In this document: positions 41 to 53,978 of the stretch, piece by piece
Numbering within the stretch: position 1 is the stretch's first letter
Layout of the letters: each line of letters starts with the position of its first letter
Source of the DNA: an uncultured Planctomycetales bacterium
GTDB lineage: Bacteria; Omnitrophota; Gorgyraeia; Zapsychrales; GWA2-47-8
DNA length: 64,000 bases
NCBI GenBank assembly: GCA_964499685.1
Contig: CAZCLW010000001.1
Coordinates: 119,859 to 183,858 of the forward strand
Reading direction: 5' to 3'
Notes under the pieces: generated by a model
What the model saw: only the letters and a program-made list of their open reading frames with translations
Told to the model about the DNA's origin: nothing
Database searches by the model: none
Program-made: the position numbers and the translations under genes

Positions 41-3000
41 TTGAACCCGACCAAAACCCACGGCCGCAATCCATATCAATGGGTCGAACCTCAGGAGGGC
101 CGCAAGCGTCTCGGCCAGCATATTGAAGCCATACTTAAAGGCCGCGGTTCAGAGAAGACCGCCGGCCTTTTAAGACCGTTTAAAGTCCAGGCCAAGGCCC
201 AGTCCCGTGCGCCGCAAAACGGTTATATATTCATCGGCGCGGCGAATAAGAAAAATATTGTCATTAATTCAAGTCAATTTAAACCGGATTCATGGATCGA
301 AATAATCCCGATGTTCATTGATTCGAATGACCTCAGTAAAGGTGCTTATCTGTATTTTGTGACTGAGGATAAAAAGGTGCTGGAATATGAGTTCCATGCC
401 GACGGCAGATATGTCCGGCCCAGAAAGACCGACGATGAGAGAGCACAGGAAGACAGCCTGCAGGCCCTTCGCAATTATATTGAAGCCCTTATCAGCGGCC
501 GTCCTCTGACCGAAGCGGCATTGGCATTAAAGACATTTACGTTAAAGGCACGCAAACAGCAAGGCGCACGCGGCGGTTACGGCCAGCTCTACTTTGGTTA
601 TGTGGAAGGCCGCGCCGTCCTTATTACCTCCAAAAAATTCAAACCGGGCAAAGCGTTCGTCATCGAACCCGTCTTGATCGACCCTAAGGATGCTTCCAAA
701 GGTATCTATCTGCTTGTAAAGGTCTCCCGCAAAGAAGCGGTCCGTTATAATTTCAACAAAACCGGGGTTCCTTTCTTTACAGCTGTTGATCAGGAGGCCG
801 ATGAAAAGCAGCGCGGCAGCCAGGCCATCAAGAATTACATTGATGCGCTCTTAAGCGGAGAGGACCTCGCAGAGGCCGCCGAGGCTTTACTGGAATTCAA
901 AGTAAAGGTCCATAAGGACGCTGATACCGGAAGGATCGATCTTGGGCTATATCGGGGAGGTTTGATCCAATTGACCCGTCGGGAATTTGTGCCCAGGACA
1001 TTTGCCGTGATCAGGCCGGTCTTTGTCGATCCGCAAGACCACTCCAAGGGCGCTTTCTTTGAGATCATTCAGGAGGAGAAGAAATTTGTTTATGAGTTCA
1101 CAGCGCATCGTAGGCCGTACATTGAGGAGAAAAAATCCGATAAGGTCAAGGCATTGCGCGACAAGACCAAGCCGATCGTTGAATACGTCGCAGCTTTGGT
1201 CAAGCGGCAGAATTTACGGACAAAGACGGCGAATCTTACCGGATTCGATATGAAAGTCGGGTCGAACGGCCGGAAATCCAAGAAAGGTAAGCTTTATTTC
1301 GGTGCCTTTAAAGGGCGCTCAATTGCCATTCTGTCGAGCCGTCTTAAGCCGGAGACAACCGTCCGTATAGAACCTGTTCTGCATGATCCTCAAGATCTCA
1401 GTCTCGGAGTTTACTTGAAGGTCTTATTGCCGACCGGTGAAGATTTGGAATATGAGTTCTATAAAGAATTTGCGTATTTAAGAGTAAAATCGGATGCGCA
1501 GACGACGGCGTTAAGAAAGAACATTCAAAACATCCTTGATTATATCGACGCGCTTATCCGGAAGAAGAATTTGACCGTTTTTGTCGAAACCATGGCCTCC
1601 TTTACGATGCCGGTCGGTAAGCTGGACAAGGAAGGAAATTTCGGCAAGCTCTTTTTCGGTAAAGTCAGGGCCAATCGCATAGCTGCGATAGGCAATCAGC
1701 AATTAAAATATGGCACCAATGTTGTCGTCAACCCTGTCCAGGTCGATCCGAGTGATCCTTCCCGCGGCGTCGAGCTTCATATTATGCTGCCGGAAGGCAC
1801 AATTCTTGTTTACAAGATCAGCAAGACTCGCACACACTTCTTTGAACTCAAGAAGGATACGGTCAAGACCACCCGGCTCAGCCGGGGAAATGCCTTGGCG
1901 GATATCAAGAAACCAAATGTCGAATGGAGACGGGTACCGCTGACGATCAAGAAGGAGCTTGTTCAGGAATTGGCACGGCTGCTTGGCAAGCGTCCTTCCG
2001 AACTCATTATCAAGGATTTTGGCCGCAAGATTCCTTCCGTTGGCCGGACGCTTAACGGCTTGATCGACTCATACAGACAAGAAGGAGATGACCGCTTTGC
2101 CGCCGTCAGTCGATTGCAGGAAGATTTAGGGTTTACCCACAAGGTAACGGTCGAGGAATACCGGTGGGAAGAAAAATACCGGGACGAGGAGAAGGTCAAA
2201 GAAGCCTTAGACCTGAAAGACATTTCGCCAGCCGCTATGGAAGCCGTGGGTCTAAGCGGCGGTGTCAATAAGACGACGGAACGAAAGCTTTTTGCCGAAG
2301 TTAATAGAGGTAATGCGGCCGCGCGCGATGCCGCTTATCATTTATACCGCAATCTGGTCCCGGCCGCTTTGAGACGTATTGATAATGCTGTCGCCAATGC
2401 CAACGAAGGCGAATTTATCGCCATTGGTGACGCCGAACTTTTACGGCGTATCGATACATTCGGTCTGCGCCGAAGAAATTACAGGCTTTCGACCTATGCG
2501 TGGAAATCCATTACTAAGGTATTGCTGGACCATGCCAGAAAGTTCACGACTATTTCACTGGACAGCGCCATGGGTAAAGATGGGGATATGGCATGGAAGG
2601 ATATCGTTGTCAGCAGCCGTTCATTTACCAATAACGATGGGCACCGCCATAAACATCTAATACAGGAAGGCGGGTCCGATGTTGATGAAGCGGTCAAGCT
2701 TCTGGAAAAGAACCATGAGCCCAGCCGGAAGATCGAGGCCTTTATACTTCTTGCCCAGGGTGCGACGGTCGCCGATCTGGAAACAGAATATATTTTCGGT
2801 GATGAGTCTCTTCAGGCGATGCTGCGGCGCCAGATCAACATCATTCAGCACAATTCTCGCTGGGATAATACGGTGCTAAGAACGGCGCCAAAAGCCCATA
2901 AAGATCGCCATAAGCCTCGGAAGAATAAAGCCCCGGCCCTGCCGGTCAGCGATCCTGCCAAACCGCGTCCCGGAAAGACTGAAGCTGATGTCATTCAAGG

Positions 3001-6000
3001 TCTGCAAGAGCTTGCGGAAAAGGCTCTGGCGGGATGGAAAGCGGTCAGCGCAAAAGATCTGCCGAGTTTTGTCAAAGAGGTCCTGCAGTATTTCAAATAT
3101 ATCGGCGATGAGGTCCGTTATAAAAGACTGATGGCGCTGATCAGCACGAACCGTCTGATGATCGGCGATGATCATATCTTCTACGGCGCGAACGATTTTG
3201 ACGGAACAAACGAAGACACTTTCCGCATCTTTATTGCCCTTAACGATAATCCCGACCCTGCCGCAACCCTTATTCATGAATTAAACGGTGAAGATCACCA
3301 AGCCAATCTGGAAGCTGAACGACGCTTCCGCAATGTCGTTAAGAGCTCGTTAAATCCGGGCAAAACCATGTCCATGGGAAGTCCTTTCAGGGTTTATGAT
3401 CTTTCTCTTCCGATCCTCCTTGCCGGCCTGGGAATACCGTATATCTTGGCTTTATCCATGCCGGCCACAATTGTTTTGATTGTTATTGTCTTGATTGCCT
3501 TCTTAGCAGCCCTAAGTGATGCCGAAAATGTCGGAGACGTGATCGGAAAAACGATAGTTCTTTCAGTTGTTCTTCTGCTTATCGTTGCGGCGGCTTATTA
3601 TGTGGTCTGGCCTGTTGCGCTATTCGTTCTAAATCTCGCCTGGAGTGCGGTGTCATTTATCTTTACGATCATCGCGTATCCTTTTGTGGTCTGGTATGAC
3701 TTGTTTGTCATGTTTCAAGAAGAGCCGTACGGTTTCGGATGGCTAAAAGCAGCATTCATTGCTCTGGTAGCGGAAGGCGCTATTGTCGGTGTTATCAGTA
3801 AGGCGTTGACTTTGTTCTTTTCTTCAAAGGATAAAAAGGAAAAAGAAGAAGAGTTTGCGGAGGAAGATGCTATTTCATTATATGCCGTTATTTTTGGTAT
3901 CCCTGCGCTTGTCGGGCTTCCATTTATTATTTATGCGAATTGGGGCTCGATCCTTTCCAGTATAGGGATAGGAGCGGAATATTTCATTGGCTGGAATTTG
4001 CACTATTTGTTAGGTGCTCTATTGGTCATCGCCGCTGTTGGTCATATTTATAAGAAATTATCTCAAAATTATGATCCCAAAGATGTATCGACTATTATGT
4101 ACTTCCTGGCAGCTATTGTTGCGCCTGTGGGAGAAGAAATTGTCTTCAGGTGGCTGTTGTTTAATTTATCGATCTGGTTATGGATAGACTATTTCGGCCT
4201 TACACAAGAGTTTGTATATACCCTTCCCCTATTTGGGTACACCATTGATGGTATATCTCTCGGTCTCTTGATCGCTGTTCTTGCTAATGCCGAACTTTTT
4301 TATAAAGCACATGGTAGCGGTAAGTGGTTCCATCATTGGTTAATTGGAGTGGTTGCCTCATATTCTTATTTCAAGACCAACTCTTTGGTCGTTCCTATTG
4401 CAATGCATTTTATTTGGAATGCGACTGCCACAATCGTTGCGGTCCTGCTCAATGCGGTTGCACCTTTATCCATGGTCGATTTAAAAGGTATGTTGGGGTC
4501 TTCGGACGGGAAAGCCGTCGAGACAAAGAAAACCTCCTTCCCGCACGTTCTTATTCTCGGCAAGCCGGGCAGCGGCAAAAGCGAGGCGGGCAGGCGTCTG
4601 GCCCAGAAATACGGAGTTCCGTTCATTGATATCGGTGAAATTCTACGGCAAGAGCGGAATGCCCAAGCAAGACAAGAGAAAGTTCCTACCGAGAACGACT
4701 TTAAGCCCGGCATAGAGGCCTTAAAGGCCAGGCTGGCCGATTCGACATTGGTCCAAAGCGGTTTTGTCCTGGTGTGGGCGCCGCGCGATGAGGCTCAAGC
4801 TGAGTTCTTCACCGAATATCTAAGAAAGAACAAGATAGAAGACAGGTTGCTGGTATTTTGGATCCGGCTGCCTAACGCCGTGGCCAAAGAAAGAATACTT
4901 AAACGTGGATTGACTTCCGGCCGGACTGAAGACAAAGAGGCGGGTAAAGTTGCCCGCCGGCTGGCAAGGTTTTATCAATACGGGCACCCGGCGATCAAGC
5001 GAATGATGGAGCTCGCCGGATTCAAAGTGTTCTTTATTGAGGGGAAAAAGAGCGCTGACAAAGTATTCGTGTCCATGGTTAAAGCGGTGGACCGCCGTTT
5101 AGATAGGCAGCGCACTGAAGACCCAGTTCTTTTGGCCTTGGCCCAGATCGGCGAAAAGGAATTCCCGTCGTTCACTGAAGAAAAGTCCTCTCCCGAAACA
5201 TTCTTTATGCAAGCCTTAAAGGCTATTCATGAGTTGCTTAACGAACGCGCCCGGATTATGAGCGATCTCTTGCCGGCTTCCGCTTCTGCGGATGGACTGA
5301 AACGCTTCGGCGAAATTCTGCGCACTCATCAGTTGCCCGGCCTTGATGTCAAGGCTGTCTTGGATCAAATTTATGACAAAGCGGCCTTTATTGATCGCGA
5401 TGGGACTCGGCTGGAAGAGCCCGGGATGCTTCATTATGTAAAGATCGTTCAGGGTGCGGTCCGCCACTTCGACCAGTTCAAGGGCGACTTAGGATTGATC
5501 CAGAGAGCCGCCCGCACCATCTTCGATTATTACATTTTTTATCATTTAGCTCTGTTATCATTGCGGCTCTGGGACGATCCGGATAGTGCCGATAGGAAAT
5601 TGGACAAATTGCAAGGCCTGCTCGACCGGCTTCAAGGCCATGAAGGCAGCGGTCAGCAATTTACCGTGCATGCTGTTTCGCTGATTTCCTTCCCGATCGC
5701 CAAGCCCTCGCGCAATGAACAGCAATACATCGACCTCTACGGCCGTATCGCCGCTCTGGATCCCCGGCACCAGCTTCCGTTCCGCAAAATCCAGGCCGTC
5801 AATAACGGGCGGCATCTTCTGACGCAATTGACCGTCGCCGAGGAAAGTATCGTCCGTCAGGCCAATCGGGTGGATTATTTCATGATGCTCCATGATCTTG
5901 CGGCTTTGTTGAAAGTCTATGCTTCTCTCGGGCATCTTTCCATGCAGGACCATGCCAAACGGGAAGTCGTGGAAGGTATTCTTGCCATCCTTTCCGGAGA

Positions 6001-9000
6001 TATTGAAGCGTTTGTCGACGGCAGTATTTTCCGCGCCCTTCGGCCGTATAGTCCGCCCGAAGAAGTAGCGGTCTTTATTCAGGCTTTGGAAAGATTGCAA
6101 GAAATAACGAAAGAGGCGCTGATGCGCGATATGGAAGTATTGAACCCATCGACGCAGATCTTCTCACCGCTGGCGGAATTGATCATGATGCCGCATACGT
6201 TCCTGAATGCAATGGTCATGGCCTCGCTCTTCGAACGCGGACTCGAGGTTTTTGCTTATGACGATATTCACTTCAGCCGGGCTCAAGCTGTGGAAAATCA
6301 GCGCAGATTGGCGTGGGCCGAACGGGTCAATCCGTTGTGGCAAATGATCCAGGTCAGGGTCTTCCGCTATGATGTTAATACCGCACAGGATCTATTTGAT
6401 CAAACGCTTAATTACCTCCGGCACTCTTCTTCAGGTACCGTGACCGGTGCGTCTAAACCCGCAGTCGCCCATCTCTCCCTCGCCCAGATCGGCGAAGAGG
6501 AGTTCCCGCGGTTCAATCTGCTGCTTCGCTGGGTCCTTATGCTAAGCGGCGTCATCATGCGGCATGAGTTGGGCCATTTGATCGGCGCTATTCTATTCCA
6601 ACAGAAATTTAAGACTTCACTTAAGGAAGTCGTTTACACTGGCCGTATTACGGGAGTGCGCGGCCTTCCGCTCACCTTCGGGTTCCTGGCCAATCTCTTG
6701 ACCGCCACGGCCGCTTTCCTTCTCACGCTTTACTCTTATCCGTCTCATGGGCATCTGACCCTTGCCTTGTTTACCATCGGCACATTGGACTTCATAGCCG
6801 CTGTTGTGGAGCTGGTCGCCAAAGAAGGCGATCTTTATAAATACGCGCCGATCATCCGCGGCCGCCTGAAGCTCAGCGTCGGTTCCTTGCGCCGGATGCC
6901 GTATTTGGCGCATTGGCTGAAGATGGAGGAAGGGACTCTCTCCCGGCTGCTTTCCAGCCGCGATCCGAAAGACCTTAAGGAAATATTCAAGGTCATCGGC
7001 CGACGCGCCGGCCGCACCTACGGCGCCGATGGACTCCACGAAGTAAGCTGGCGCCTGGTGGATTATTTTGAATATCTGGAACGTGTCCAGGCCTCACCGT
7101 TTGCCAAAGTAAAGCCCTACAATCCGGAGAAGGAAAATAGCGCGGTCGAAGTGCAGCCGCTTGAAAAAGAATTCCGGACGAAGTTCGGCGAAAAATTCGT
7201 CTTTGAGCGGTATTGGAAAGTGATCCTGCGTATCGTCGAGGACAATCTCTCCCGCGGCCTGAGCCAAGAAGAATTCGCCGTCCTGCAGAGCTTTATCGCC
7301 CATAATCCGCTGATGGCCAATTATCTGTTCAACAGCTATCTCCTGAAAAACCAGGGGCTCTATGTGCCGCTGTGGATGTCTTACTCGGAGGGAGTGCGTT
7401 TCGGCAAACGCTGGAGAGAACTGCGTCGAAAGCATAAAGAAGCCATTCAGGCAGGCTTAAGAGGTATTTTGTCGACGAGAAAGATCGAGCAATATGCCAA
7501 GGGGATGATCGTTCCTTTGGAAGCGTATATGGAACATTCCAAATATCTGCAGCAGCAGTTTGCCGGCCGCAATTTCAGCGCCGGATTTTATCTGCAGTAT
7601 TTGGCCGAGACCGACTACTTCGACCTGGAAGCGACCGCGAGCCGCATCGAGGATTTATTGATCCTTATCCAAAAAGAGTCGCACCGCAAGAAATTCAGGG
7701 TCCTTCTGGCGGCCTATGACCGCTTGAGGGCCGTGCCCAGTATCGTCTTTGCCGCCGAGATGGTCAAATTCATCCTCGACCGGCAAGATCTTACTTTCGA
7801 GATCATCGGGCTGGATACGGATCCTCTGAATGTGTTGCAGGGCCGTGAAAAACTGGCCCGCTTCGGTATGGAAAATGCCGTGAGCCTCGTTGGGCCGGAC
7901 AATGTCCGCCTCGGCGAGATGGTCCGTAATCATGAAAGTATCGAGGCCAACGACCTGCGTGAATTGTTGTTCCAGACTGAACTGATCGAAAGCGGATTCG
8001 ACCTCATCATCTATTATGATCCGGGCCAATTGGTGGATCCGGGCCCGCCTTTGGCCAATACACGAAGGACGGCCGAGAATTTTGAATATGTCCTGAATCA
8101 AAACGGTTTATTGCAGCTCTTTGTCCGTGAATCGAAACTGCAAAAGAGCCTGGCGTTCCGTCTTTTGACACAGGCCGCCTGGATTCCGGTCCGTCAGGGT
8201 GTCGTCAGCGCTGTCCAGCCTACGGCGCGATGGGACCTTCCGTATAATCGGTATACCTTCGATAAGAAGGGTCTTATGGAGTTCAATGACCGGTTGTCCC
8301 TCCTCGGACAGGAGACAAACAAAGTGGGAGATCCCCATTACACAGCCGAACAGCTGGAGAATCTGGCTACATTGGGCGAGATAAAGCGCCGGATCGATAA
8401 CAGACGCCTGCGCACTGAGGCCGCCATTTCGGATTGGAACGGCGATAAAGCCCTTTGGTGGGAGAAGATCGTTATTGAATACCGCCGGGCCTTTACCGAA
8501 TACATCGCCCGCGGCGGGGAGCGGGACAGGTTTACCTTCGATGTCTTCCTCAATGGTGATGCTCTCTTTGCCGAATATAGAGAAGGACAGCCTTATCCTG
8601 ATGATCCATGGAGTGTCTTTAAGCTTCTTTCCGGCATGGACCCGAAAACAGGTGAAAAGATCGAGAATAAAGGGACCCCCGAAGGAATGCAGTTCCATTT
8701 GATCCTGGGTATGAACGAATATCTATTCCTGGCCGCCAAGATGGAGAATGCGATAGGCTTGCGGCTGATGCTGGGAGATAAATTCCGGCCCGGATTCGAG
8801 CGTCTGGGTGTTTCGGGCAACAACTTTGACGAAAGAAAACAAAGCTTTTTGAGCAATCCGGCCATCGATAGAATTTACCGCTGGATCCGTCAGAATGCGC
8901 ATTTGTTCAAGATCGGCGCCAACGGTACGTTATATATAAGCGGCGGTGCATCGATTGCCGTCAGCATGCAGAACTTTGACGAGACATTGTTCACCCAGTT

Positions 9001-12000
9001 GATGAGACTCGAGGAACATTTGCGCGAAGAAAAGAACGGACGCTTTGTTTACACGCTGACCAATGATCCGCATCTTCAGGCCATGGCCGGCTCCAAAGAA
9101 ACACTCGATTCCCAGTTCCGTCTTGGGCCGCGGCATCTGCACAGGCTGAGCACGCTCTTTTCATCGCCGTTCATTTGGCTCATTAATAACAGCCGGTTGA
9201 ACCGTGAGAACCTGCAGGGCGGCATCATCGGCGCCGGCGACGGTATGGTGACCATAGGACAAAAAGGCATCCGCTATTATACGCAGGCAGGATCCTCCGA
9301 AGGCCAGAAAAGCATAAAGAAAATTAAACTCCTCACAGGTGAGGAATTTGTGAAACAGTTGCACCAGCTGGTCGTTGAATTAAAGACCCTTGAGTATGAC
9401 CGGGGCCGCATGGACGAAGCCGCCAAGCGGCTCAGGCCGGGATTTGAAAGAGCGGTAACGTCTATTCTTAATCTGGCATCGGAGATCGGCCTCGGGCGTT
9501 ATAAATTGGGTACGCTGCGGGATAAGGTCCCGGAGAATATGAAATTCAAGATCCGCCGGGTCCTGGCCGGCCTGGGGCATTTCGTGTCGCCTGACAGTAC
9601 GCAGCGGCGAAAAGAGATCAGAGCGAAACGGCAGGCCAGATTGGATGAAGCCAAGCGGCGCCTTCAAAAATCAATAGACGCATTCGATATGGATGTAGTT
9701 ATCAAGGAATTGGAGGCCCTGGAAAAGGACCCGCGCAACGATGAGCGCATATTGGAAATGGGCGGTTCGTTTACGATAGAAGTCGAGATCAAGAACCGAA
9801 AGGGCATGCATTTGCGGCCGTCCATGATGGCCTTCACCCTCTTGGCCAGCTTTTTGGATCAAGTGACTGTGACCATAAAGAATGTCACTACCGGCAGCGA
9901 TGAGATAGACGGCCACACGCTGATGCAATTCCCGATGTTGGCGGCCAAAAAAGGCGACCGCCTTCGGGTTGTTATCGTGGCAAAGGATCCGCAGTACAAG
10001 CTGGAGATGTTGCAGGCAGCGGTTGCCTTAAAGATCCTTATTGAAGAAAGAATTTTCGGAGAAGTTGAGGGTCTTGAGAGGGAAGCCGAGGAGCTGTATA
10101 GCGCCAATCCAGAGGAGATCGTCAAAGAAGTTACGGCGTTCAGCGCTGATCAACTTTTTGAAAAACTGCAACCTCGGCCATCCGAAGGTCATGGTGAGCT
10201 CAAGACCGCATCCTGGGCCAGGGCGCCCTTAAACGGCCCGTTGCCGAGAAAACCCGGAATATATATCGATGCGGAGCGGACCATGCTCCTGCGCGATGAG
10301 GATATTATCGCTTTACGGCAGCAGGCAGAGGCGGCCTTGGCCAAGGAACCGTTGGCAAAAACCGTGACCCTTGACCTGCCGCGCGGCGGAGCGCTCAAAT
10401 TCTCCGTCTTCCATCTTGACCGGAAGATATTCCTGCTGCCTTTGAAGATCGCTTCCGACGGACGCTTAGGCGCGGACTTGGCCAGGGCCTTGGCCATGAC
10501 CGGCATCATGCTGTTCTATGATCTGTTCATTGTCCTTCCTGCTTCACATATCATCTCGCCGAATTTCTCAGATCACTTAGCTGCCAGTATCCCCGAACAT
10601 CAAATTATCGTTTTACACGATCGTCTGATACCGTTGATGCGCAAGCTCGACCGGATATTACCTGGCACCGGTTCGACTTTCCGTCAAGTTCTTCTGATGC
10701 ATGAATTGCGCCATGTCTTAAGATCGCTAGGACAAAGAGATGACGAAGAACATCATGAGCAGCTTGACCGCATGCAACTGAGGGTCTTATCGGTGTATGA
10801 GCAGTTTGATATTGGGCCATTAATGTCCTTGCTCTTGGAAGAAGGTGTCGTTGACGCGGAATTCAACCGACGGCTTGGTGCTGAGAATGCGGTCAATGTG
10901 AATCGTTTGCCGGAGCACATTGACATGGTAGAGATCATCCACGCGGATGAATTTTTCAAGGATTTGAGCCGATGGTTAGGTAAGAACGGGGATATTTCTT
11001 GGGATGGCGGAGAACGTTACGGAGTGGTCTGGGCCCGCCTTGAGTATGTTAAGAAGCAAGAATTTCATTCCATCCAGGTAATGGCGGAAGACGACTGGAA
11101 AGGCCGGTTTGCCGAAATGGCGATTTTGGACAAAAACCGCGGCGTCTGGTATCCGGAAAGAGGCGCTTTCGGTCAGCTTATTCTCAGCACTTACCGTTAT
11201 CATGACGGCCGCATCGCTGTATTGATAGAAGAAATTCAGCCTGACCATTACCGCAAACTGAGCCATACCCGCCGCCGGCATCTGGATATGTGGCGGCAAA
11301 AGGCGGTTCAAAAGATCGCGGAGTGGGTGGTTGCCAACGGCTATGAGCTTATCGCCGCCGGGCCGGAAATGATAAGGTCCGTTTACCGCAAGAAAAACGG
11401 AAAGACCTTATCGGATTTTGAAGTACGGAAAAATTATATGGAGCCTTATGATCCCGACTTGTGGAAAACACGACGGTTCATTACGCCGCACTTCCCGGAA
11501 TACGAAGCATTGTACGTATTCAGGAATGGACATCATCGGCCCGGTACCGCCAACGGGGACCGGCAGCCGCTCGCCATAACAACAATACCAACGATGGCCC
11601 ATTCTATCTCCTCTTCCGGCATGTTGGCGGTCGCCCAACGCTTTAAAGATGACCCGTCCATTGCCAGCCACTTCAGGATATTAGGCGATGCGCTGAAAGT
11701 GCTTGAGGAATATATCGCTTCAAGCGGCAAAGTGACAGGGCCGCCGATTGTGGCTTATAGAACCACAGACGGACAAGTCATCTGGAACTTAACCACAGAA
11801 AAAATCTTCGAGATTCTACTGGAACGCGGGCATAACAACGGCTTCATCCGCTTCGTCATCGATCAAATCAAATTGCATGAATCAAGAGAGACGGAAGCCG
11901 CCGCCATCAAAGCCCAAGTGGATGAAATGGCCGCTTGGTACGGCCGTCATCTTTCCGATAAGCGCCGTCAGGCCTTGTCCAGGTCCAGCAAAAGCCTTGC

Positions 12001-33000: not shown

Positions 33001-36000
33001 CATCGTTCTCTTTACCGCGCTCGCGGAGATAGTCTTCATTCCGGATAAAGAGGATCATTCTGACCCCAGGGCGGATATTTGGCGCGGGGAGAGGTTGTGG
33101 CTTTTCAGGATACTGACTTTTTCAGTCATCAGCGTTTCCCTGATACCGATCGGCAATATTGTGCTTACCGAATTGATTGGTAAGGATATCTCGACCCTCT
33201 ACTCAGCCATCTATGATCATAATCCATCCCTGGCCACTATAGTTGAATGGACCGCCTATATCCTGGCCGGACTGGACATATTTTTATTGGTTGTTTTTGC
33301 GGCCTTTGCCGTTGTTAAGAAGATCAAGATGATCAAGCGGCTTGATGAGTATGTCCATGTCAGGACATGGGGGAGATTGAAGGAAAGATTGACCAGTAAC
33401 GGTCTGAACAGTCTCATCATTATCGGTTGGCCGGGTTCGGGCAAAAGCTATTTGGCGCAGTGGTTGAAACAGCAGTGGGACAATCATGAAGAGCATGTGG
33501 AGGTCCTGCAGGCTGACATGTTCTTTAAAGAGCGGGTCCACATCTTGCCCATGGTGCTCCTGCAGTCTTTGGGCTGGATCCCGGTTGTCTGGTGGCAAAA
33601 ATGGATAAGCCGCCGGATGATGAAAAGAAGGATAGACGGCGAGAAGTTACAGGCTTTCTTCGAGACACTCACGGCCTACCGCGAATCCTTGCAACACGAT
33701 CCTGAGCACGCGCTTCAGGTGCGGTTGCAAGTCAGAAAGCCTCATCCGCCGCTGTTTTCACCTTCGATCATCGATATTGAACTTAATTTGACACCAAAGA
33801 CCATCTTGGTCTTTGACGGATATTTCTTCGCTTATTATCTGGAACAGGTCCCCCATCCGCATATCTTATTGTTGAAAACATCTCTTTTCCGTTCCTTCCT
33901 GAACTATGTCCATCGCCACCGCAAGGTCAACGGTGCAAAAGGGTTCGTAAAAACAGCCATATCTTCTTTGGCCTCTGCGGCAGGGATCCTGATCGATTAT
34001 CCGGTCATCCAAACTTCCCGTCACATCGGGACCGAATACATCATTGATTTTAACGGCCACGAAGAGCCTCTTTTATTGAAGAACGGCAAGAACGGCAAGC
34101 ATAACGGACGGAAGGGACACAAGAATGGCGACCATGACAAAACTCCGCCGCAAGACCGCAGCGGGGTCCATGTTAATATGCCGGTATTTACCGTCGGGAT
34201 CGCAGGTTATATGGCCGCGCAAGCCCTGCCTCTATCCCCATGGGTAGGAGTCGCATTCTTGGCCATTACTTTTATTGGTTTGATCCTTTGGGCTTTGCCC
34301 GCCGACCCCCGTCGATACGACCGCAAGTCCTATGAAGATTATAAAAATACGCGCGGAGAATTGGGCGATGTTTACGCGTTCTTTATCAAAGAAATCATTG
34401 TTCCGCATCTAAAACCGGAAGATGTGGTGGTCGAGGTGGGTGCTGGAGCGGGAGGATTAAGAGAATTACTGGGGAATACTTTACCGGAAGGGGTCCGTTG
34501 GATCGAGACCGATTCCAGCCAAGAAGCCCTTGATTATCCTCGGCGCTTCCCGACAGAAAGACAACAGGTAGTCTTGCCGCAGCTGCCGTTTGATCCGGAT
34601 TCTGTTTCAACGGTTGTCGGATTATCCTCGTTAAGCTCTCTCAATCAGCCGACCATAGTTAGTTCTCTTCAGGAGATTTTCCGCGCTGTTCAGCCCGGTG
34701 GGAAATTTATTCACATTATGGATCTTATCCCTCCGGCCGGCGAGGAATGGGAAAAAGCCCAAAAGGAAGGGCTTTTCCTGCTTCCGCGCGTTGCCGATAT
34801 TGCGGGCGGCCCCCTGTCTCTGGGATTGCTGTATGTCAGTCAGGAAAGATTGTCTAGGCAACCTGCTCTGGTGGAGCAGGCCATAGAGTTTATCCGTATT
34901 TTCAAGACAAACAATTCCCGCGGATTTCTGGATGATGCCATGGTCCAAAAGTTGAGGCGTTTCGAGGAGGAGCTGGACCGTGCCCAGGTCGTGGTCCGCA
35001 AAGAAAACAGTATGATCGAGGTCAAGGACCGGGAAATCAAGGCCGCCGTCCAGGAAGCGGGCTTCAGGACCCTTCAGGCCGGTTTATTCCAGATTAACTT
35101 TGCTGTCGATAGAAAAGATGTTTCCGGGCTGGCGCCATCTATCAACACGGTGATCTTTGACCATGGCAAGATCGGCCGGTATCATTTCCCGGACGTTCCG
35201 GGCGATAAGGTCCAGATCTTTATTGCCGTGACAGCGCTTGTCGCGGAAAAACCCCTACCGCCTCCGGCGGACCAAACAGAAAATGCGGCCAATGACTGGC
35301 TAGCCAAAAGACTTAACAGTTTTGCCCGGCTCTGGCAGGGCGCCGATCCTGCCCTGCAAGAACGGTTCCGCGAAGAAACCGCCTTATTGAACGCGATACT
35401 TGATCAGCAGGAGACCGAGATAGGCCGGGATTATTTGGCCCGGCTCATCGGATTGCAGGAGGCATACAACCACTTCCATCGTCGGGGTCTTTCGCCCCAT
35501 AGGATGCCTGAAGGGATCGAAGAGACGAATTGGAAAGGTTATGAAGGAGTGGATCTTCACGGTTGGTTTTGGAAAGCCGAAGGCAGTGAAGAAAGACGTC
35601 CCGCGGTTGTTTTGTTGGCTCCATGGGGTTTTGATGCCACATGGAATCTCCCTCTCGCCCAGCGCTTAAGAGAACACTGGAACGTTCATTTTGTGTTCAT
35701 AAGTCTGCGCGGCCACGGAAAGAACGGTTCTTCGCTGACAACGTTGGGGATCGCCGAAAGCCTGGACTTGCAGGAGATCGTCGGACAATTGGCGGCGCGC
35801 CATGATGTGGATCCGGATAGCGTCATGGTCATTGGTCATTCGTTGGGCGCGATCAGTTCCATTATAGCTCAGGCGAGAAAACCGCTCTTTCGGAAGATCG
35901 TTGCGGTCGGTCTTCCGGCGACCTACCGCGCCGCTGTTTCCAGCTGGATAAGGAATCTGGTCCTCTCCCAGCAGCGCTATCGCCGGGCGTTTGCCCAGTT

Positions 36001-39000
36001 CCCGGTCCCGGAAGAGTTGAACGAGGCGGTGGTTTTGGCAGCAGGGAACGCGGTGGAAACGATCCGGGAGTGTTATGTGAAGGAAATAGGCATTGATATA
36101 AAAAATTGGACCGTGGCTGGTATAGCTGAACCGGTCGAGGCCATCCGTCACATCAACGCACCTGTCCTTTTAGCCGTGGAGTCCGATCAGATAGTCGTTA
36201 ATGCCGCACAGCGCGAAGCTTTTGCGGGATCTGCAGGGAATTCAGTTTCCATCCGTACATATGCCGGGACGCATAACGGGATCTTAACGGGCGAAGACGG
36301 GGAGCGGTTTATTCAAGACGTTGTGGCGTTCTTATCAGAAAGCATACCGGCCGCTCCGGTCACGCGAGAAAGATTCATTGATTTCTTAGATCAGCGCGCT
36401 GTAATTTGGCAAGTCCTTTCAGCTCTGGAAAGCTTCCGCGCGGAGGGGATGATCCGTGGTTACGGTATATCCGGAAGTTTTTCGCGCGGCGAACTCCGTC
36501 TGGATAACGGTCACGACCTGGATATCGCGCTTTTGCTCAAAACCCGTCCGCAATTCCCCGAAAGACTGATCAGATACATTGATCAGGTCAATAAAGATCA
36601 CGGCGATGCCGTACATATTACCCTTGAGGCCTTTGGACCGGCCTATCGCTTCGACCCACAGACCGGATCGCTGCGGTTTGAGATGGTGCGCGGCCGGGAG
36701 ATTGTCCGGTCCCAGATCGGATCCGGTAAATATAAAGGAAATAGATTTATTCAGCTTTCAGATTTGCCCATTACTACGGATGTCCTGTGGCAGTTGTATC
36801 AAACATTGGCCGCCTTGGGCCCGCTGACAACCGATGAGGTCCGGGCGATGCTGGATGTGGAAGCCTGTCCCAACTGTGTCCTTAAATTACTTTCTCCACA
36901 GCGCGCCGTTGAAGTTTACATGCAATTGCAAAAAGATCCGCAGCGTAATATCCGTTTTGTCGAGGGCCATCCTTATTTTAACGTTCAAGCTTTACTGGAA
37001 ATTCTCAGGTCCGATGAGATCGAGCGCATCTTTGTCGAACCGGACCCAACCGCCCCGGGGCGCGGCTGGCATGCCACCTCACGTAAGACCGGCGTCCGGC
37101 TGACCGATATTCCGGACCCGGCCAACGCCTGGGTGGGGGCCGCAGAAGATACATTGGGTGGCTGGTCAAAAATTTTGTTGGATGGCTTAAAAAAGGCAGG
37201 ATTGGCGTCAAAGCAGTCGTTAAGGATCATCGATTTGGGGACCGGTTACGGATATTTCTTGCAGCATTTTGGACGACTTCTCAAGCAGTGGGGCTATCGC
37301 GTTGAGGCTTTGAAGGGCATCGATTATGACAGCGGTTTGGCTAATGCCCATCAAGTTTTGCGCGAGCGGTCTGCGGAATTGCCGTTAATTTTTGCAACCG
37401 CCAGAGTGGCGGAATACAGCGATGACCAGGAATACGATATCGTGTCCATGAACGCCCCGCATACCCAGGTCTTGGAAGAATTTACTTTACGCGCTCTGCA
37501 GTTGGTCAAAACAACCGGAATTATCTGGATCCGGATGGAGCAAACACAAGAAGACTGGTTTGTCTCTGCCATGACGGAATTGAGCTATCATTTCAAGAGA
37601 ATACCTAAATTTGCCGGAATGGAACTTAAGGAAATGGAATTGGTTGTGGGGGACGGTCTCGTGGACAATGAATGGAGTAAAAGTCCCGTCGTTCATTTAG
37701 TCTATTTTACTTCTTCAAGGCCTTCGAATTTGCGCGATGATCCTAACGGCCGGGTGGGGGCCAAAACAAGAAGAGAATGGCAGCCGCACGAGATCCGTCA
37801 GTGGCTTTTGGAAGAACTCGGAGAAGAATTAGGCATTGCTTTTGTGAGGGTTTTGATTGAAGGGTATGAAAAACTTCTTAACGGTGAGAATATTGATAAG
37901 GTCACACTAGCTGGTCTCTCCTATCAGCTGCGCACGGACCATTTTCTGGTGGCGGGATTGGGGAGAGTGATCAAATATCAATTCGAAAATTCACATTATG
38001 AGGCTGTCATCCGTTTATTCGACCGTCTTCCTTTAGCGAAAGGAAATTTTGTTCGTTTTACGGCCGGAGAAAAACGAGTCCGGCCGGAGAAAGATCCCTT
38101 TGCCGCACAAAAAGAGATCCGCCGGCGTTTGGCGTATTTGAGCGGCGCTCCTTGGATCGCTACCCTTGTTGACGAATACGAGATGCTTCCTGACAGCGGC
38201 GGAGACCCCCATACAATCGACCGCCTCGCGCAGACCGCCTATCAGATCAGAAGAGGGCATTTGCATATATCCAGCTTGAAGGATGTTTTGACCAAAGGCT
38301 TCGATGGTGATCCCCGCCAGGTGATAATGTATGCCTTCCCGCGGCTTGCGCTCAAAGAAGAAGGCTTCAAGGTCGTCCTGAAGGTCGATAAAGACCACTT
38401 TTATCAACGGGTTTACCGGATCAGCAAAGACCCGGCGACAGGGAAGGAACTCCGAGAACTGGTCAATGTGGAACGTCAGAGTGCGACATTTTCCTTCCTT
38501 GATACGCCGGGGCCGCATCTACGCCGCACATTTTTGGCGCAGGATGGACGTATCTATCTGTGGCCTAAGAAATTCGTTGGGCCGCTTAGGGTCATTAAGG
38601 TCAATGGCCGGAGCCGGCCGGATCCGGCCTTGACCGGAAGAGCGGTGGATATTTATTATGATGCCGACAATATTCCACGCCGGCTCGTGATCTATGAAAC
38701 ACCCGAGCGGATCAAACTCTTGGATTCCATTCATCTCCACCCTATATTGACCGTCCTGGATTCAGGGAGGACCCAGCTTCACGATGTTTATTATCGAGGC
38801 TATCCTTCCCAAAAGCGCCAAGCCCTGACGAACCATGTTGTCGAAGGAAGATTGAGCCCTCAAGGGACTTTTTCATTCGCGAATGATAATAAAGAGGCTT
38901 CCGGTGCCTGGGCCAGATTTGGGTTGAGGGCCGATCACACTATAGATCCTTCTTATGCCGGCGCGGCATACTCCGCCTATTTTAAGGATGGCTATCCTCT

Positions 39001-42000
39001 GTGGGCCGTTATCTATAAAGAAGGCCGATTGACCGAGGAAGAAGGTGAGCTGCATATTTTCCAGCGCATTCTAAGACAAAAGGACCTGAAAGTGGTCAAA
39101 ATTTTCGGTACAACGATATCCATGGCTACCTGGCCCACGATTTTATCCGAACATGGGCCGATCTTCATTGAAGGCAGTTATGTCGCCGATAAAAAGGGTA
39201 TTATTACTATCGCCGGCAGAAAACTGCGTTCTAGGGAATTGGCTGGCCTTCCTGTACTTATGAAAGCCGATGAGACCGGCCGTTTTTATGCCATGCCGAT
39301 GATCGTTCCCGATAGGATGAGAAAATGGAACCATGCGGTTTTTGCGGCCCAAGTGAAAAATATGATGGCGCAAGAACTGACCCGCGCCCCGGCTGAGCGT
39401 GTGCTCATTGTTCCGGAAGGCATCGATGAAAAAAGCCGGTCATTTTATGAGCAGCTATATCGGAAGGAAAGATTAAGCCAAAAGGGCGTGGTTTCCTTGT
39501 ATGAAGACATTATCTATTTAGGGGATTTTGCCCTGGATCAGATCTTGCGTGGAGTTCCTGAGGACGTCTTGAATTACAGAATTAAGTCGGGGGATAGGGA
39601 AGATACGATCAGGGAATTCATACGTCAGGTCATTCGCCATGGCGTGGTCAGTATCAATCGCGGAACTTTGGGCCCAGCCCATGAACGTCTGGGCCGGGAT
39701 ATCAATCTGCGAGAAAGGCCAAGGATCGCGCTTATGTCGTTTGTTTTGCGGGCAGAGGCCGCGAAGGACCTGATCTGGGCCAGCCATGCTTATCTGGTTT
39801 CAGAAGAGATCGCGCGGGTCCGGGCTGCGCGTCACCTTAAGTTAAATGGAGAAGACTGGGAAGAATTGCATGCGATCGGGTTAAACGTATCGCTGAGGAA
39901 GGCTGTCCAGTTTTATAACATTTATGATGCGCGGTCTAGGAAGGCGACATTTGTTACATATGCCCGCAAGATCATCGAGCGCGATATGCTCAAGGCCCTT
40001 ATCAAAATTTCAAAAGTAAGAAAACGGATGCCTTTGTCATTGCATCATCCTTATGGACCAGAAGCAGAGGGGCGGCAGTGGTCGTTGCTTGATGAGATCG
40101 TGGATGAAAGGACCGGCGTAGTAACAGAAAGCTTTACACCGACGCAAGGTTCCGCCAAAGATGGATTTTATGCAATCATGCAAGGATGGCGCATTCTGGA
40201 CGAACGTACCGCGGAAATGCTTTGGTTGAGATTTTTGCATTATTTTGGTTTTGAAAGATGGACTTATCAGCAGATCGGAAAAAAATTCGGTGTAAGCCAT
40301 GAGACCGTCCGCTTGACCGTTTTATCGCTTTTAGAGGCATTATTCCAAAGACCGGAGATCATCGTCGATATCGGTGCTTTATTCGGCATTCGATTGGATG
40401 CGGATACGCTTGTCTCGCTCTTGGAGCGCTGGAACGGCAACGGTAACGGTAGCGGAGAACATAACGGTGATGATGAAGGTTTGAAAGGAAAACAGGCCAA
40501 TGCCCTGGCCTGGCCGGTCATGGCTTTGGTCCTCTTGTACATTTATCCTTCCCTGATGACCTTGGCAGCGATAGCGCTCCTGGTGGTTTTGTCGGCAGTC
40601 GTTTGGTATAAAAAGCCGCGGCCGCGCGAAGTTGCTTTAACACATTTTCGGAAAAACCTGCGCAGGACAGTCATGTTTAACAATGATACTGCGGGCTATT
40701 CCTTATGTTATCCCACCAATGAGGATTATCTTGGCGCGCAGATCCCTGGTTTACGGCAGATGGTCGAAGCGAAAAAAGCCGCCGGAGAAACGACTGTGGC
40801 CGTTTCCGTGTCCGTGGACCAAACCCTGGGCTTTTTAACGCTTTTTGACCGCGTCTATCTCCTGGATAATACCGCCGCGGTCGTTGAATTGGCTTTTCCG
40901 GCGATGATCAAAATGATCATGGAGGCGCAAAGCCGGGCTGATTTTGCGGCACGGCTTTTCTGGAGGGAATTGAGTCCGGAGCAGTTAAAGGATTTGGAAC
41001 ACGCCCCGTTATCCGCGATCGAAGAATATTTAAGGGATGATGATCGCTTTGCGGATCGCGGCGTAGATCGAATGTCCTATGTGGTGGAGCTTCTTTATGG
41101 GATCGCGACCCGGAAGATGCGCTGGACATTATTGAGAAAGAGGGAATTTGAGGATGCTGTTTATGAGTTGCGCAAGTTGTTCTTCGGCTGGATCAGGACC
41201 GAAGAAGATCTTGATTATGCACCGGAAAAGAGATTATCCGCTTTTGCCGCGGCAACATACTTGAAAGATGAGGATTCTTTCCGGACGCTGAAGACGAAGC
41301 TGGCATCGGGCGCATTGCTCCCTGTGCTCGGCGAAATAGAGGGGGAAGGCTTAAGATATGTCACAAATGATCTGCAGGAGAAAGGATGGACGGCGCATCT
41401 GATCTATATTTCAAACAGTCTGGAATTGGCCGGCCTGTTCGGCAACACAGGGCTTATCGACCACGACATTTTTGCGAAGTTCAGGGCCAATCTCAGGCGT
41501 GCCAGGGATAAAAGGGTCATTGACAGCCGGACATTGATCTCCTGGGGTATCGAAATTGACAGGATGCGTCTGAATACCCTGGAAGAATTCTTTGGCGTTG
41601 ATTTTCCGCTCGACGAGGAGTTTTTGGGAAGTAAATCGCACAAGGCTGTCGTTTATCACGCTGATACCAAGATTTCCCGGAGGCCTTATCGTCCGAAAGC
41701 ACCGGAAGAGCGGTATACGGACGTGGATCAGTACCTTCTCGAGAAAAGGATCGATCCGCGGGTATTAAGACAGTTGGTGAAGATCAACAGGAGCAAACTC
41801 AATGTCTCGATCGTTATCCCGACGACAAAGAGCAGCCGCCACTTAAGAGAGACCGTCGAGCATGTGGCCAAGCAGTTTTCTTTTATACGGCAGCAGCGTC
41901 CGGGCTGGACGGTCGAGTTGATCCTGGTTATCAGCGGCGAAGAATTGGACCGGACGCGGGAAGCGGCTTTAGCTCTTCAAAATGAATTTTTCTTTGCCGG

Positions 42001-53046: not shown

Positions 53047-53460
53047 CTATTGAAATCCCGCAAAAACACCGGTGCCGAACTTTTCCAGTACTTCATCCAA
53101 CACTTGCACAAAACAGATCTGGCTTGTGTTATCGCCCCCGTCAAGAGTATTCCGTGTGGCGCAGAGGGTATAGCTGGTGCCGTCGGAGGCAATATCAATG
53201 CTGTAGGTAAAGTGAGAGTTCGGCATATTGAGATCGGGCGTAAGAAAACTCTGACTGATATCGCAATTATAAACTGCCGAGCCGGAAAGCCCATGGCAAT
53301 GTTCAAAGCTGCGCCGTAATTGCATCATTATGTTGAGCGCCTCGGCGCTCCGGGAATATTCGATCATACGGTACATGCGCGGCAGGCCCAACGCAGCCAG
53401 GACGCCCACGATGATAATGACAATAATGACTTCCAAAAGAGTAAAAGCTTTCTTATTCAT
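53047..53460 (-). CDS. Divergent prepilin-type pilin-like protein, paralog 4 (about 137 aa from MNKKAFTLLE; the ORF extends to 53487).
   Basis: MNKKAFTLLEVIIVIIIVGVLAALGLPRMYRMIEYSRSAEALNIMMQL.... It lacks the C-terminal YEGMEW motif of paralogs 1-3. TGATG coupling at 53460. Its stop at 53047 is 2 nt from the giant gene's stop (convergent). Confidence 0.7.
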   Translation of the reverse strand: MNKKAFTLLEVIIVIIIVGVLAALGLPRMYRMIEYSRSAEALNIMMQLRRSFEHCHGLSGSAVYNCDISQSFLTPDLNMPNSHFTYSIDIASDGTSYTLCATRNTLDGGDNTSQICFVQVLDEVLEKFGTGVFAGFQ

Positions 53461-53978
53461 CACCATTCCATCCCGTCGTAAATGCAATAACCTTTAATAT
53501 GGGTGCCGTGGGAAGAGCTGGAAGACAGGCTGATCCCGCCGGGGTCATCATTGACTAACATTGTTGAGCTCACAAGACTGCCGACCGTAAAAACCACGTT
53601 AGCTAAACAGTCCCCGTATATTCCGGAATCATCATCCCGCCAGGCGAATAAGGCATACCCCACGGACCCATCGGAAGGGTCGGTTACGGCCGATAAAAAT
53701 TCATACACAAATTTACTGGGCCCGGAAGGATCGTCAATGCCGAGCGCGGAAAAACTAAGGCAGTTTGTGTAAGCGGTCGTCCCGCCGCCTTTCATTAGGT
53801 AACACCGCTCAACGGCCGCCCGGATATTGCTGAGATGATTGATGGCCTCGATGGCGCGGGTGCGCTCGACCATGCGGATAAAACGGGGAAAGGCGAGGCT
53901 GGCCAGGACCGCGATAATGATGATGACGATAATGAGTTCAAGGAGAGTAAAGCCGGATCCCAGGCGTTTATTTACCAT
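53460..53978 (-). CDS. Prepilin-type pilin/pseudopilin-like protein, paralog 3, 172 aa.
   Basis: MVNKRLGSGFTLLELIIVIIIIAVLASLAFPRFIRMVERTRAIEAINHL...GYCIYDGMEW. It has Gly at -1 before Phe+1. It overlaps the upstream gene's stop by 7 nt. Confidence 0.8.
   Translation of the reverse strand: MVNKRLGSGFTLLELIIVIIIIAVLASLAFPRFIRMVERTRAIEAINHLSNIRAAVERCYLMKGGGTTAYTNCLSFSALGIDDPSGPSKFVYEFLSAVTDPSDGSVGYALFAWRDDDSGIYGDCLANVVFTVGSLVSSTMLVNDDPGGISLSSSSSHGTHIKGYCIYDGMEW

Follow-up and report, generated by a model that had tools for sequence, protein, structure and literature searches.

We analysed a 64,000-nt stretch of the contig CAZCLW010000001.1 (hereafter the window), in which a single giant gene encodes a membrane protein of at least 17,667 residues, here called the megaprotein. 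The main result is that this protein contains a segment, named sigma module 2, which is confirmed by profile searches and by predicted structure as a sigma-70-family module with both a sigma-2 and a sigma-4 domain. A second, partial sigma module (sigma module 1), a CPBP intramembrane protease domain and a probable site-2 protease (S2P)/M50-like domain lie in the same chain. The original prediction, made by reading the letters without database searches, had described sigma-70-family modules embedded in one giant membrane protein together with intramembrane proteases, and this general picture held. Our interpretation, which we favour but hold only tentatively, is that sigma module 2 is a membrane-tethered, sigma-derived module that docks the core of RNA polymerase. 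The coordinates of all features are given in Table 1.

As had been supposed, the giant open reading frame (ORF) encodes one polypeptide. It contains no in-frame stop codon, compared with about 840 expected from the base composition, and the other two forward frames contain 754 and 958 stops over the same span. The GC contents of its first, second and third codon positions are about 0.57, 0.38 and 0.57, respectively, and are constant over 17 of 17 sub-windows of 3 kb. From the lack of stops and the constant codon-position GC we concluded that the ORF is a real coding region, neither a chance ORF nor a chimera. Since the frame is free of stops back to nt 2, with its first methionine at residue 91, the true start, and with it any signal peptide, may be located upstream of the window. 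The ORF is one gene of at least 17,667 codons encoding a membrane-anchored mosaic protein, in which about 45 hydrophobic segments, arranged in clusters, were found by Kyte-Doolittle hydropathy.

The megaprotein was compared with Pfam and NCBIfam in overlapping pieces of 5,000 aa and then in shorter tiles. The segment nt 39,650-40,345, which had been proposed to correspond to sigma-70 regions 2 and 4, was borne out on both counts and contains sigma module 2. Pfam Sigma70_r4 matched module 2 with an expectation (E) value of 6e-7 (29.3 bits against a gathering cut-off of 24.1), NCBIfam SigK matched it with an E of 1.4e-10 in one continuous alignment over model positions 67-212 of 235, and TIGR02937 gave an E of 2.8e-8. 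When 1.84 billion representative proteins were searched exhaustively with phmmer, nine matches were obtained, comprising a stand-alone protein named P0001 (see below), six sigma factors of the SigE/SigK type (178-280 aa, E from 1.3e-5 to 6.8e-4, identity 31-33%) and two tandem-repeat artefacts, P0002 and P0005, which were dropped. A local profile built from the six SigE/SigK-type sequences scored 57.6 bits on module 2, whereas 60 shuffles of the whole megaprotein scored at most 7.0 bits; with a profile of region 4 only, the scores were 26.5 bits for module 2 and at most 13.5 bits for the shuffles. Single-sequence searches of PDB with the sigma segments reached E values of 0.04-0.3 only, and a word-indexed homologue search with module 2, or with the alignment of the larger unit that contains it, found nothing.

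The AlphaFold2 (AF2) model of module 2, built on an alignment of eight sequences, has a mean predicted local distance difference test (pLDDT) score of 62; the values are 62-82 in the two helical domains and less than 50 in the linker. When this model was submitted to Foldseek, the top 50 PDB matches were without exception sigma chains of polymerase holoenzymes, and Pro-sigmaK (8vjl_B) was among the top matches both in sequence and in structure. Module 2 retains 23 of the 58 columns that are invariant in the six SigE/SigK-type sequences, including IG..L, TYA and SL..P.G...EG....L, and its linker reads 'SLHHPYGPEAEGRQWSLLDEI' where that of the SigE/K sigmas reads 'VSLHDPIGTDKEGNEITLQDIL'. The sigma-4 domain is followed by an extension of about 30 residues (nt 40,346-40,432, aa 13,436-13,464; 'QRPEIIVDIGALFGIRLDADTLVSLLERW') that has no family match and is conserved in P0001 as 'QPEILCRFFELLGFDVDIDRVKSLAEKWL'; as an appendage of the sigma module it may have a regulatory role.

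Both modules had been described as resembling sigma factors of the extracytoplasmic function (ECF) type, and this assignment has to be abandoned. Their best NCBIfam models are those of the sporulation group-3 sigma factors SigK, SigE and SigG. Region 4 of module 2 belongs with Sigma70_r4 and not with the ECF-typical Sigma70_r4_2, for which the E value was 0.16, and the top database matches of the module are SigE/K-type proteins. Its layout consists of two domains joined by a linker of about 58 aa with a SigE/K-type, sigma-3.2-like motif, 'SLxxPxGxxxEGxxxxLxD'. Because of the best models, the region 4 family and the linker, we concluded that the modules are not of the ECF type. On sequence grounds, the comparisons show that both sigma pieces derive from a SigE/SigK-type gene of the sigma-70 family.

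For sigma module 1, regions 2 and 4 had likewise both been proposed (nt 2,320-2,850), of which only region 2 stood. NCBIfam gave E values of 8.5e-6 for SigK and 1.9e-5 for SigG, and all ten of the families listed were sigma factors; the local SigE/K profile scored 20.4 bits, against at most 7.0 in the shuffles. The AF2 model has pLDDT values of 75-91 over aa 740-835 and was superposed by Foldseek on the N-terminal domain of SigE (8b3z) with a template-modelling (TM) score of 0.81 at 2.1 Å. The candidate helix-turn-helix of region 4.2 (nt 2,693-2,851, aa 885-937, forward strand) was rejected, as it had no Pfam match at E <= 10, a profile score of -1.4 bits and a pLDDT below 50. Thus, the sigma folds expected from structure prediction were obtained for module 2 and for the sigma-2 part of module 1, but not for region 4 of the latter. 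A direct BLASTP comparison of the two modules was not significant (E 1.6). A profile made from the two window segments alone, however, matched in the whole of PDB only the N-terminal domain of SigE (E 0.0015), Pro-sigmaK (E 0.0021) and RpoD (E 0.31), which links the modules with one another as well as with sigma region 2. In all likelihood, module 1 is a sigma-2-only copy that has either decayed or become specialised. A repeat of about 118 aa, present in at least five tandem copies (nt 86-1990, aa 16-650; 29-32% mutual identity, E down to 5e-35), adjoins module 1 on the upstream side; no Pfam, NCBIfam or PDB match was found for it.

A third, weaker region-2-like stretch, which had been placed at nt 20,400-20,560, did not survive. 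It scored 3.5 bits with the region-2 profile, within the range of the shuffles (up to 12), though it was the best of the remaining tiles, and its NCBIfam E values were 0.048 and 0.079. In hhalign only a 27-column linker motif, 'SLxxPxGxxxxG', was aligned (P 0.016). Judged by these scores, the resemblance is unsupported and indistinguishable from chance. The hhalign probabilities of module 1 and of this third stretch against the sigma alignments were low, partly because one alignment (A2) included full-length P0001.

Sigma module 2 forms the C-terminal part of a conserved unit of about 900 aa, which is homologous from end to end with P0001, a stand-alone protein of 1,285 aa encoded on the contig JBDRMW010000083.1 ('MAG: bacterium', 37.6% GC). 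By tblastn the two are 29% identical (E 9e-79, with a second piece at E 4e-31), and the exhaustive phmmer search gave an E of 3.5e-29. The stop codon of P0001 falls exactly at the megaprotein linker NGNGNGSGEHNGDDEG. Genome, metagenome and viral contigs were scanned with module 2, with the unit alignment and with the stretch from module 1 through the CPBP domain to the adenylate-kinase-like module, and JBDRMW010000083.1 was the only match. On this contig (1-23,858), eight of nine co-directional genes, that of P0001 included, start with a signal-peptide-like leader followed by the motif [FL]L[AST]PP[GAS]; the neighbours of P0001 encode a protein with a Fic-like domain (E 1.1e-4, just under the Pfam cut-off), a signal-peptidase-II-like membrane protein and a transketolase-like giant. 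A C-terminal tail, 'INRSxGxIDxA', is common to P0001 and the next ORF, and the whole array gives the impression of encoding exported cargo proteins that share one sorting signal. The leader motif 'LAPP' does not occur in the megaprotein. The 654-aa N-terminal part of the unit gave no match in sequence searches of PDB.

Downstream of module 2, the hydrophobic anchor (aa 13,484-13,522) starts 49 residues past the last sigma-4 residue and has a strongly basic downstream flank. The module itself sits in a stretch of about 2,090 residues devoid of hydrophobic segments, which it shares with two S-adenosylmethionine (SAM)-methyltransferase-like domains. A hydrophobic element, 'LAWPVMA..V.Y.YPSL.TLA.I..L', occurs twice with 52% identity, at aa 13484-13530 and 14256-14305 (nt 40,490-40,606 and 42,806-42,955), and looks like a membrane-anchor or hairpin cassette that was reused between soluble modules.

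Two intramembrane protease domains were also part of the original prediction. The CPBP domain is confirmed by profile and motifs: Pfam Rce1-like gave an E of 8.1e-10 (39.3 bits against a cut-off of 22.4), NCBIfam MroQ gave an E of 1.4e-4, and the three catalytic motifs EExxxR (EEIVFR, 1365), FxxxH (FYKAH, 1421) and HxxxN (HFIWN, 1456) are all present. For the M50/S2P-like domain, placed originally at nt 20,800-21,270, the motifs stood and the profile scores did not. The motifs HEIGH (6957-6961), DPRVF..W..GGPLFTF (6988-7012; 'DPRVFDGWRGWKGFLMDAGGPLFTF') and NAVPGV...TDG (7050-7066; 'FMNAVPGVLSEETHGKTDG') keep the order of the family. Hydrophobic helices begin at aa 6891, 6935, 7024 and 7039, and HEIGH comes right after the helix 6935-6953. 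In the third motif, which aligned to positions 160-199 of the M50 model, N, P and DG are present with an unusually long spacing. Every Pfam score was under its cut-off, namely M50 with E 0.0054 (16.5 bits against 27.2), M50B with E 0.0087 (16.2 against 26) and DUF3267 with E 0.07. The only relevant sequence match in PDB was the Aquifex S2P aq_1964, aligned on the GGPLF motif with an E of 0.09. We consider this domain a probable S2P/M50-like domain and a candidate protease. The chain contains four HExxH motifs, against about 0.7 expected by our own estimate from composition. One of them, HELGH at about aa 2175 (region nt 6,518-6,817, aa 2160-2259), has the hydrophobic context 'LMLSGVIMRHELGHLIGAILF', is followed by two hydrophobic helices and may mark a second membrane-embedded zinc protease; the region has no match to any hidden Markov model.

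What might module 2 do? Its best-conserved parts are region 2.1-2.2, the 'TYA' of region 2.3, the linker and the sigma-4 fold; in sigma factors the linker threads towards the active site of the polymerase. The recognition helix of region 4.2, on the other hand, reads 'GVSHETVRLTVLSLLEAL' where sigma factors have 'GISRSYVSRIEKRALxKL'. Since the polymerase-contacting parts are the best kept and the DNA-reading helix is degraded, we favour a tethered docking module. Held at the membrane, module 2 would dock the polymerase core and might hold or sequester it. That it has retained core binding seems to us rather probable from its conserved positions. To act as a free initiation factor the module would have to be excised, as are Pro-sigmaK and the membrane-fused sigma IutY, and by the same analogy the embedded CPBP and S2P-like domains would be the obvious, if unproven, candidates for the cut. 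Release by a protease of the same chain is, in our opinion, possible but doubtful. The alternative offered with the original prediction, namely that the sigma folds have been reused as modules binding RNA polymerase or DNA, fits at least as well as its principal model, because the recognition helix has lost basic residues and because P0001 looks exported and has a more decayed sigma domain.

A number of observations weigh against the docking reading. In module 2, TIGR02937 scored 33.6 bits against a cut-off of 42.9 and SigK (NF004471) 40.8 bits against a curated cut-off of 252. Profile searches for both sigma regions had been proposed originally; Pfam Sigma70_r4 was found in module 2, as described, but Sigma70_r2 was not reported there and was under its cut-off in module 1 (E 0.055). 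The AF2 models of both modules were built on alignments that included true sigma factors, and the mean pLDDT was only 62 for module 2 and 58 for module 1. As it is without sigma-4, module 1 cannot be a complete sigma factor. In the recognition helix of module 2 few of the basic residues are left, so recognition of the -35 element may be lost as well. Pfam detected no anti-sigma family at E <= 10 in the sequences flanking either module, and no cleavage site or site-1 signal was found adjoining either of them. Module 2 is about 6,300 residues away from the S2P-like domain and about 11,800 from the CPBP domain. Its anchor may be one helix or a hairpin, the topology derived from hydropathy and the positive-inside rule being ambiguous. 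The sigma region of P0001 taken alone has no Pfam match and is more decayed than module 2, and the signal-peptide-like leader of P0001 would place that protein outside the cytoplasm. Finally, the megaprotein is 12-fold depleted in cysteine (15 in 17,667 aa, or 0.085%, compared with 1.0% in ten flanking ORFs). Exclusion of cysteine is characteristic of exported proteins and of those exposed to an oxidising compartment, and bears on which compartment holds the sigma modules.

It is possible, though rather unlikely in our judgement, that the modules are captured and decaying sigma genes with no role at the polymerase, carried as passengers and used, if at all, as helical spacers or as generic interaction domains. 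The loss of sigma-4 from module 1, the noise-level score of the third candidate, the degraded DNA-reading helix of module 2 and the lack of a Pfam match for the sigma region of P0001 would all be explained in this way. The protein is, moreover, a mosaic of unrelated housekeeping-type enzymes, and the giant proteins of Omnitrophota have been described as very diverse domain mosaics (10.64898/2026.06.07.730766). On the contrary, module 2 still reaches an E of 1e-10 with SigK models and of 1e-5 with real sigma factors among 1.8 billion proteins. Its linker motif, for which we know of no role outside the polymerase, is well kept, and the intact 53-kb ORF means that selection acts against stop codons along the whole chain.

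An effector directed at prey or host is the next explanation. The protein or its fragments would be exported, the sigma-like module would block or redirect the polymerase of the victim, as phage-encoded sigma factors do, and the ATP- and SAM-dependent modules would find their cofactors inside the other cell. Consistent with this are the cysteine depletion relative to the neighbouring genes, the four pseudopilin-like genes directly downstream, and the only homologue of the unit, which has a signal-peptide-like leader with [FL]L[AST]PP and belongs to an eight-gene array with one Fic-like member (E 1.1e-4). In addition, giant Omnitrophota proteins encoded beside secretion or pilus genes have been read as predation effectors in published work. 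Nevertheless, we regard this explanation as quite unlikely: no secretion signal is visible on the megaprotein, whose N-terminus may be off the window, and its approximately 45 hydrophobic segments speak for a protein that stays in the membrane. Somewhat broader is the proposal that module 2 is a working part of a new device, either (a) a one-chain pro-sigma cut loose by its own proteases or (b) an effector that hijacks the polymerase of another cell; taken together, we think these forms unlikely. Hints of form (b) come from the near absence of cysteine, from the adjacent pseudopilin genes and from the homologue, which looks exported and belongs to a leader-sharing array.

A strict form of the model put forward originally, in which an ECF-type sigma tether is cleaved by the S2P of the same chain after a site-1 cut by the CPBP protease, appears very improbable. 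It is true that sigma modules, membrane anchor, CPBP and S2P-like domains are all found in one chain, that about 200 residues separate module 1 from the CPBP helices downstream of it, that the weak third stretch directly precedes the S2P-like domain, and that separate-chain precedents exist in IutY/RseP and Pro-sigmaK/SpoIVFB. However, the modules are not of the ECF type, the sigma pieces adjacent to the proteases are an incomplete one and an unsupported one, and thousands of residues separate the complete module from each of the proteases; no curated threshold was reached by the S2P-like domain, and no anti-sigma or sensor domain was found. A chance resemblance, or an artefact of assembly or frame, could be argued from the sub-threshold Sigma70_r2 scores, the PDB E values of 0.04-0.3 and the near absence of relatives in public data, but it has a practically negligible probability in view of the shuffle controls (57.6 and 20.4 against at most 7.0 bits; 26.5 against at most 13.5), the E of 1e-5 after correction for the whole 1.84-billion-protein library, and the stop-free ORF with its uniform coding statistics, so that for practical purposes it is out for module 2 and the sigma-2 of module 1 and stands for the third stretch.

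Table 1. Features of the giant gene and its surroundings in the 64,000-nt window (nt, nucleotide positions in the window; aa, residues of the megaprotein)
Feature	nt	aa	Strand	Description
Giant ORF	41-53,044		+	17,667 aa; multi-pass membrane mosaic protein
Sigma module 1	2,270-2,590	744-850	+	Region 1.2-like lead-in, sigma-2, degenerate linker motif 'ISLDSAMGKDGD'
Hydrophobic cluster with CPBP domain	3,458-4,489	1140-1483	+	9-10 helices; Pfam match at nt 4,091-4,423
CPBP/Rce1-like protease		1351-1461		Within the helix cluster; above Pfam cut-off
Adenylate-kinase-like module	4547-5095	1503-1685	+	ADK E 1.5e-9; TIGR01360 E 1.2e-14
HPr		3246-3328
HEAT repeats		4842-4885 and 5233-5303
APH/homoserine-kinase-like		5724-5950
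Third region-2-like stretch	20,399-20,695	6787-6885	+	Directly N-terminal to the S2P-like domain; motif-level resemblance only
Probable S2P/M50-like metalloprotease domain	20,711-21,238	6891-7066	+	Three collinear motifs
P-loop		~11,124		Weak
Stretch without transmembrane segments, upstream of the unit	34,427-37,453		+	Two SAM-methyltransferase-like domains and alpha/beta hydrolase; same compartment as module 2
SAM-methyltransferase-like		11,463-11,554; 12,379-12,471; ~14,330-14,480		Second and third below Pfam cut-off
Alpha/beta hydrolase		11,863-12,078
Conserved unit of ~900 aa	37,775-40,471	12,579-13,477	+	End-to-end homologue of P0001; C-terminal part is module 2
Sigma module 2	39,743-40,345	13,235-13,435	+	Region 1.2-like lead-in, sigma-2, SigE/K-type linker, sigma-4 helix-turn-helix
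Sigma70_r4	40,196-40,312	13,386-13,424		Above Pfam cut-off
Linker NGNGNGSGEHNGDDEG and anchor	40,433-40,606		+	Low-complexity linker, 35-residue hydrophobic anchor, basic flank KKPRPR
GT2 glycosyltransferase		13,923-14,032
Protein kinase		14,825-14,986		Just under Pfam cut-off
GDE_C amylo-alpha-1,6-glucosidase module	48,293-49,447	16,085-16,469	+	Pfam E 3.6e-100
Four consecutive pseudopilin-like ORFs	53,047-55,002		-	Prepilin N_methyl motif, E 5.5e-8 to 1.1e-5

As shown in Table 1, recognisable domains of very different kinds are distributed along the megaprotein, and about 80% of it is without any family match. The shorter Pfam tiles added almost nothing new, including in the HELGH region at aa 2175, the N-terminal part of the unit and the N-terminal repeats. 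The adenylate-kinase-like module spans TIGR01360 model positions 4-187 of 188 and has the size of a whole enzyme. The GDE_C module is, to judge from its alignment, a complete enzyme embedded in the chain, being 55-57% identical over the full length to stand-alone glycogen-debranching enzymes of 400-420 aa. Its best named matches are from Candidatus Omnitrophica (55-56% identity), the only taxonomic hint that the sequence offers. Since both the P0001-homologous unit and the GDE_C module match stand-alone genes, the giant gene looks like a concatenation of whole-gene equivalents. No regular placement of low-complexity linkers between the modules was found.

Internal duplications were also observed. 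Two distant pairs, aa 3853-3959/10360-10480 and aa 8331-8448/11820-11946, are 29% identical with E values of 1e-7 to 1e-8. The beginning of the alpha/beta hydrolase (aa 11,863-12,078) falls within the second pair, and a weak Peptidase_S9/Abhydrolase_3 match (E 0.007/0.013) near aa 8,400 suggests a second hydrolase-like module. A purine-rich stretch at nt 46,001-48,000 (aa ~15,320-15,990; AT skew 0.28, GC skew 0.17) encodes an E/R/K-rich, coiled-coil-like sequence with short basic and proline-rich repeats, in which aa 15480-15539 is duplicated at aa 15553-15612. The pseudopilin-like ORFs are convergent with the 3' end of the giant gene, and beyond them lie TPR, PCMT and DUF4139 genes. Neither rRNA or tRNA genes nor any Rfam family were found in the window.

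The known sigma factors are free subunits or, at the largest, fusions of a few hundred residues with a membrane-spanning regulator, and it is therefore unusual to see a recognisable SigE/K-type module mid-way in a membrane protein of 17,667 residues. If module 2 binds polymerase, the giant proteins of host-dependent bacteria would be linked to the control of transcription, either in the producer, as a stored pro-sigma, or in the prey, as a hijacking factor. It would also be the first time that one gene was seen to encode a sigma module together with its membrane tether and with candidate proteases for its processing, and binding of the polymerase core would offer a way into the function of a class of proteins of which about 80% has no family match. 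If, instead, module 2 is only a decaying passenger, giant genes would still be seen to grow by swallowing whole genes, one unit of which is separate in a related locus.

With respect to its overall construction, the megaprotein resembles the giant mosaic proteins of Omnitrophota, the 'Archaeovorins' and their relatives (10.1101/2023.11.21.568195, 10.64898/2026.06.07.730766), as far as its domain composition can tell. Like them, it is encoded by one very long ORF, has many transmembrane segments and large regions without family match, mixes glycosyltransferase, methyltransferase, glycoside hydrolase, peptidase, HEAT and kinase domains, and has secretion- or pilus-type neighbours. It differs in that the class-defining SecA-like, C39, dockerin and NUDIX domains were not found, and in that its visible length is below that of the 30,000-aa class; Pfam detected no SecA DEAD-like domain, C39 or S8 peptidase, dockerin or NUDIX domain in the 5,000-aa pieces and shorter tiles, although the N-terminus may be off the window. 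The word 'sigma' does not occur in the main texts of the two papers (10.1101/2023.11.21.568195, 10.64898/2026.06.07.730766) or in one supplement, and a literature search on giant Omnitrophota proteins with sigma factors returned nothing relevant.

The putative S2P-like domain resembles the members of its family (RseP, RasP, SpoIVFB and aq_1964) in having HExxH at the end of a hydrophobic helix, followed in the same order by 'F..W..L..GGPLFN/TF' and an 'N..P....DG'-type motif. It differs from them in the 11 residues between P and DG, as against about 3-4, and in the absence of a PDZ or CBS domain. The CPBP domain is like the Rce1-like proteases, including MroQ, in meeting the Pfam cut-off and in its three catalytic motifs, but is embedded in a giant chain. 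PrsW, a distant relative of CPBP proteases, is the site-1 protease for anti-sigmaW; a link of the present CPBP domain to sigma processing is a conjecture.

Among sigma factors, SigE and SigK have the motifs 'GEDxEDLxxIGxxGLxKA', 'TYA' and 'SLxxPIGxDxEGNExxLxD' that are also found in the window modules. Pro-sigmaK is a sigma precursor cut by the S2P metalloprotease SpoIVFB (PMC11486902; PDB 8vjl), and the concept, in which an intramembrane metalloprotease activates a sigma precursor that is inactive while associated with the membrane, would, by analogy, be alike. However, the pro-sequences of SigE and SigK are 20-30 residues long, whereas about 13,200 residues precede module 2 and about 4,200 follow it, and their protease is a separate protein, whereas here the candidate protease is in the same chain and there is no sporulation context. 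Closer in architecture are IutY (ECF243), a sigma fused to a membrane-spanning extension and cut by Prc and RseP, and the ECF48, ECF52 and ECF53 groups, for example SCO4117, in which sigmas are fused to membrane-spanning anti-sigma-like C-terminal extensions; activation by proteolytic release has been established or proposed for them (PMC8999054). As in IutY and the ECF52 type, a transmembrane segment follows the sigma domain of the megaprotein within tens of residues in the same polypeptide. Those proteins are ECF sigmas a few hundred residues long, in which an anti-sigma (ZAS) or sensor extension can be recognised, whereas module 2 is SigE/K-like, has no detectable anti-sigma domain and is flanked by thousands of residues on both sides. 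The arrangement had originally been called unprecedented, which is correct only in part: sigma precursors cut by S2P and sigmas fused to membrane segments are known (PMC11486902, PMC8999054), while a protease in the same chain would be new. What is new, then, is a sigma module in a giant multi-enzyme membrane protein that also contains candidate proteases, whereas tethered sigmas and pro-sigmas as such are already known.

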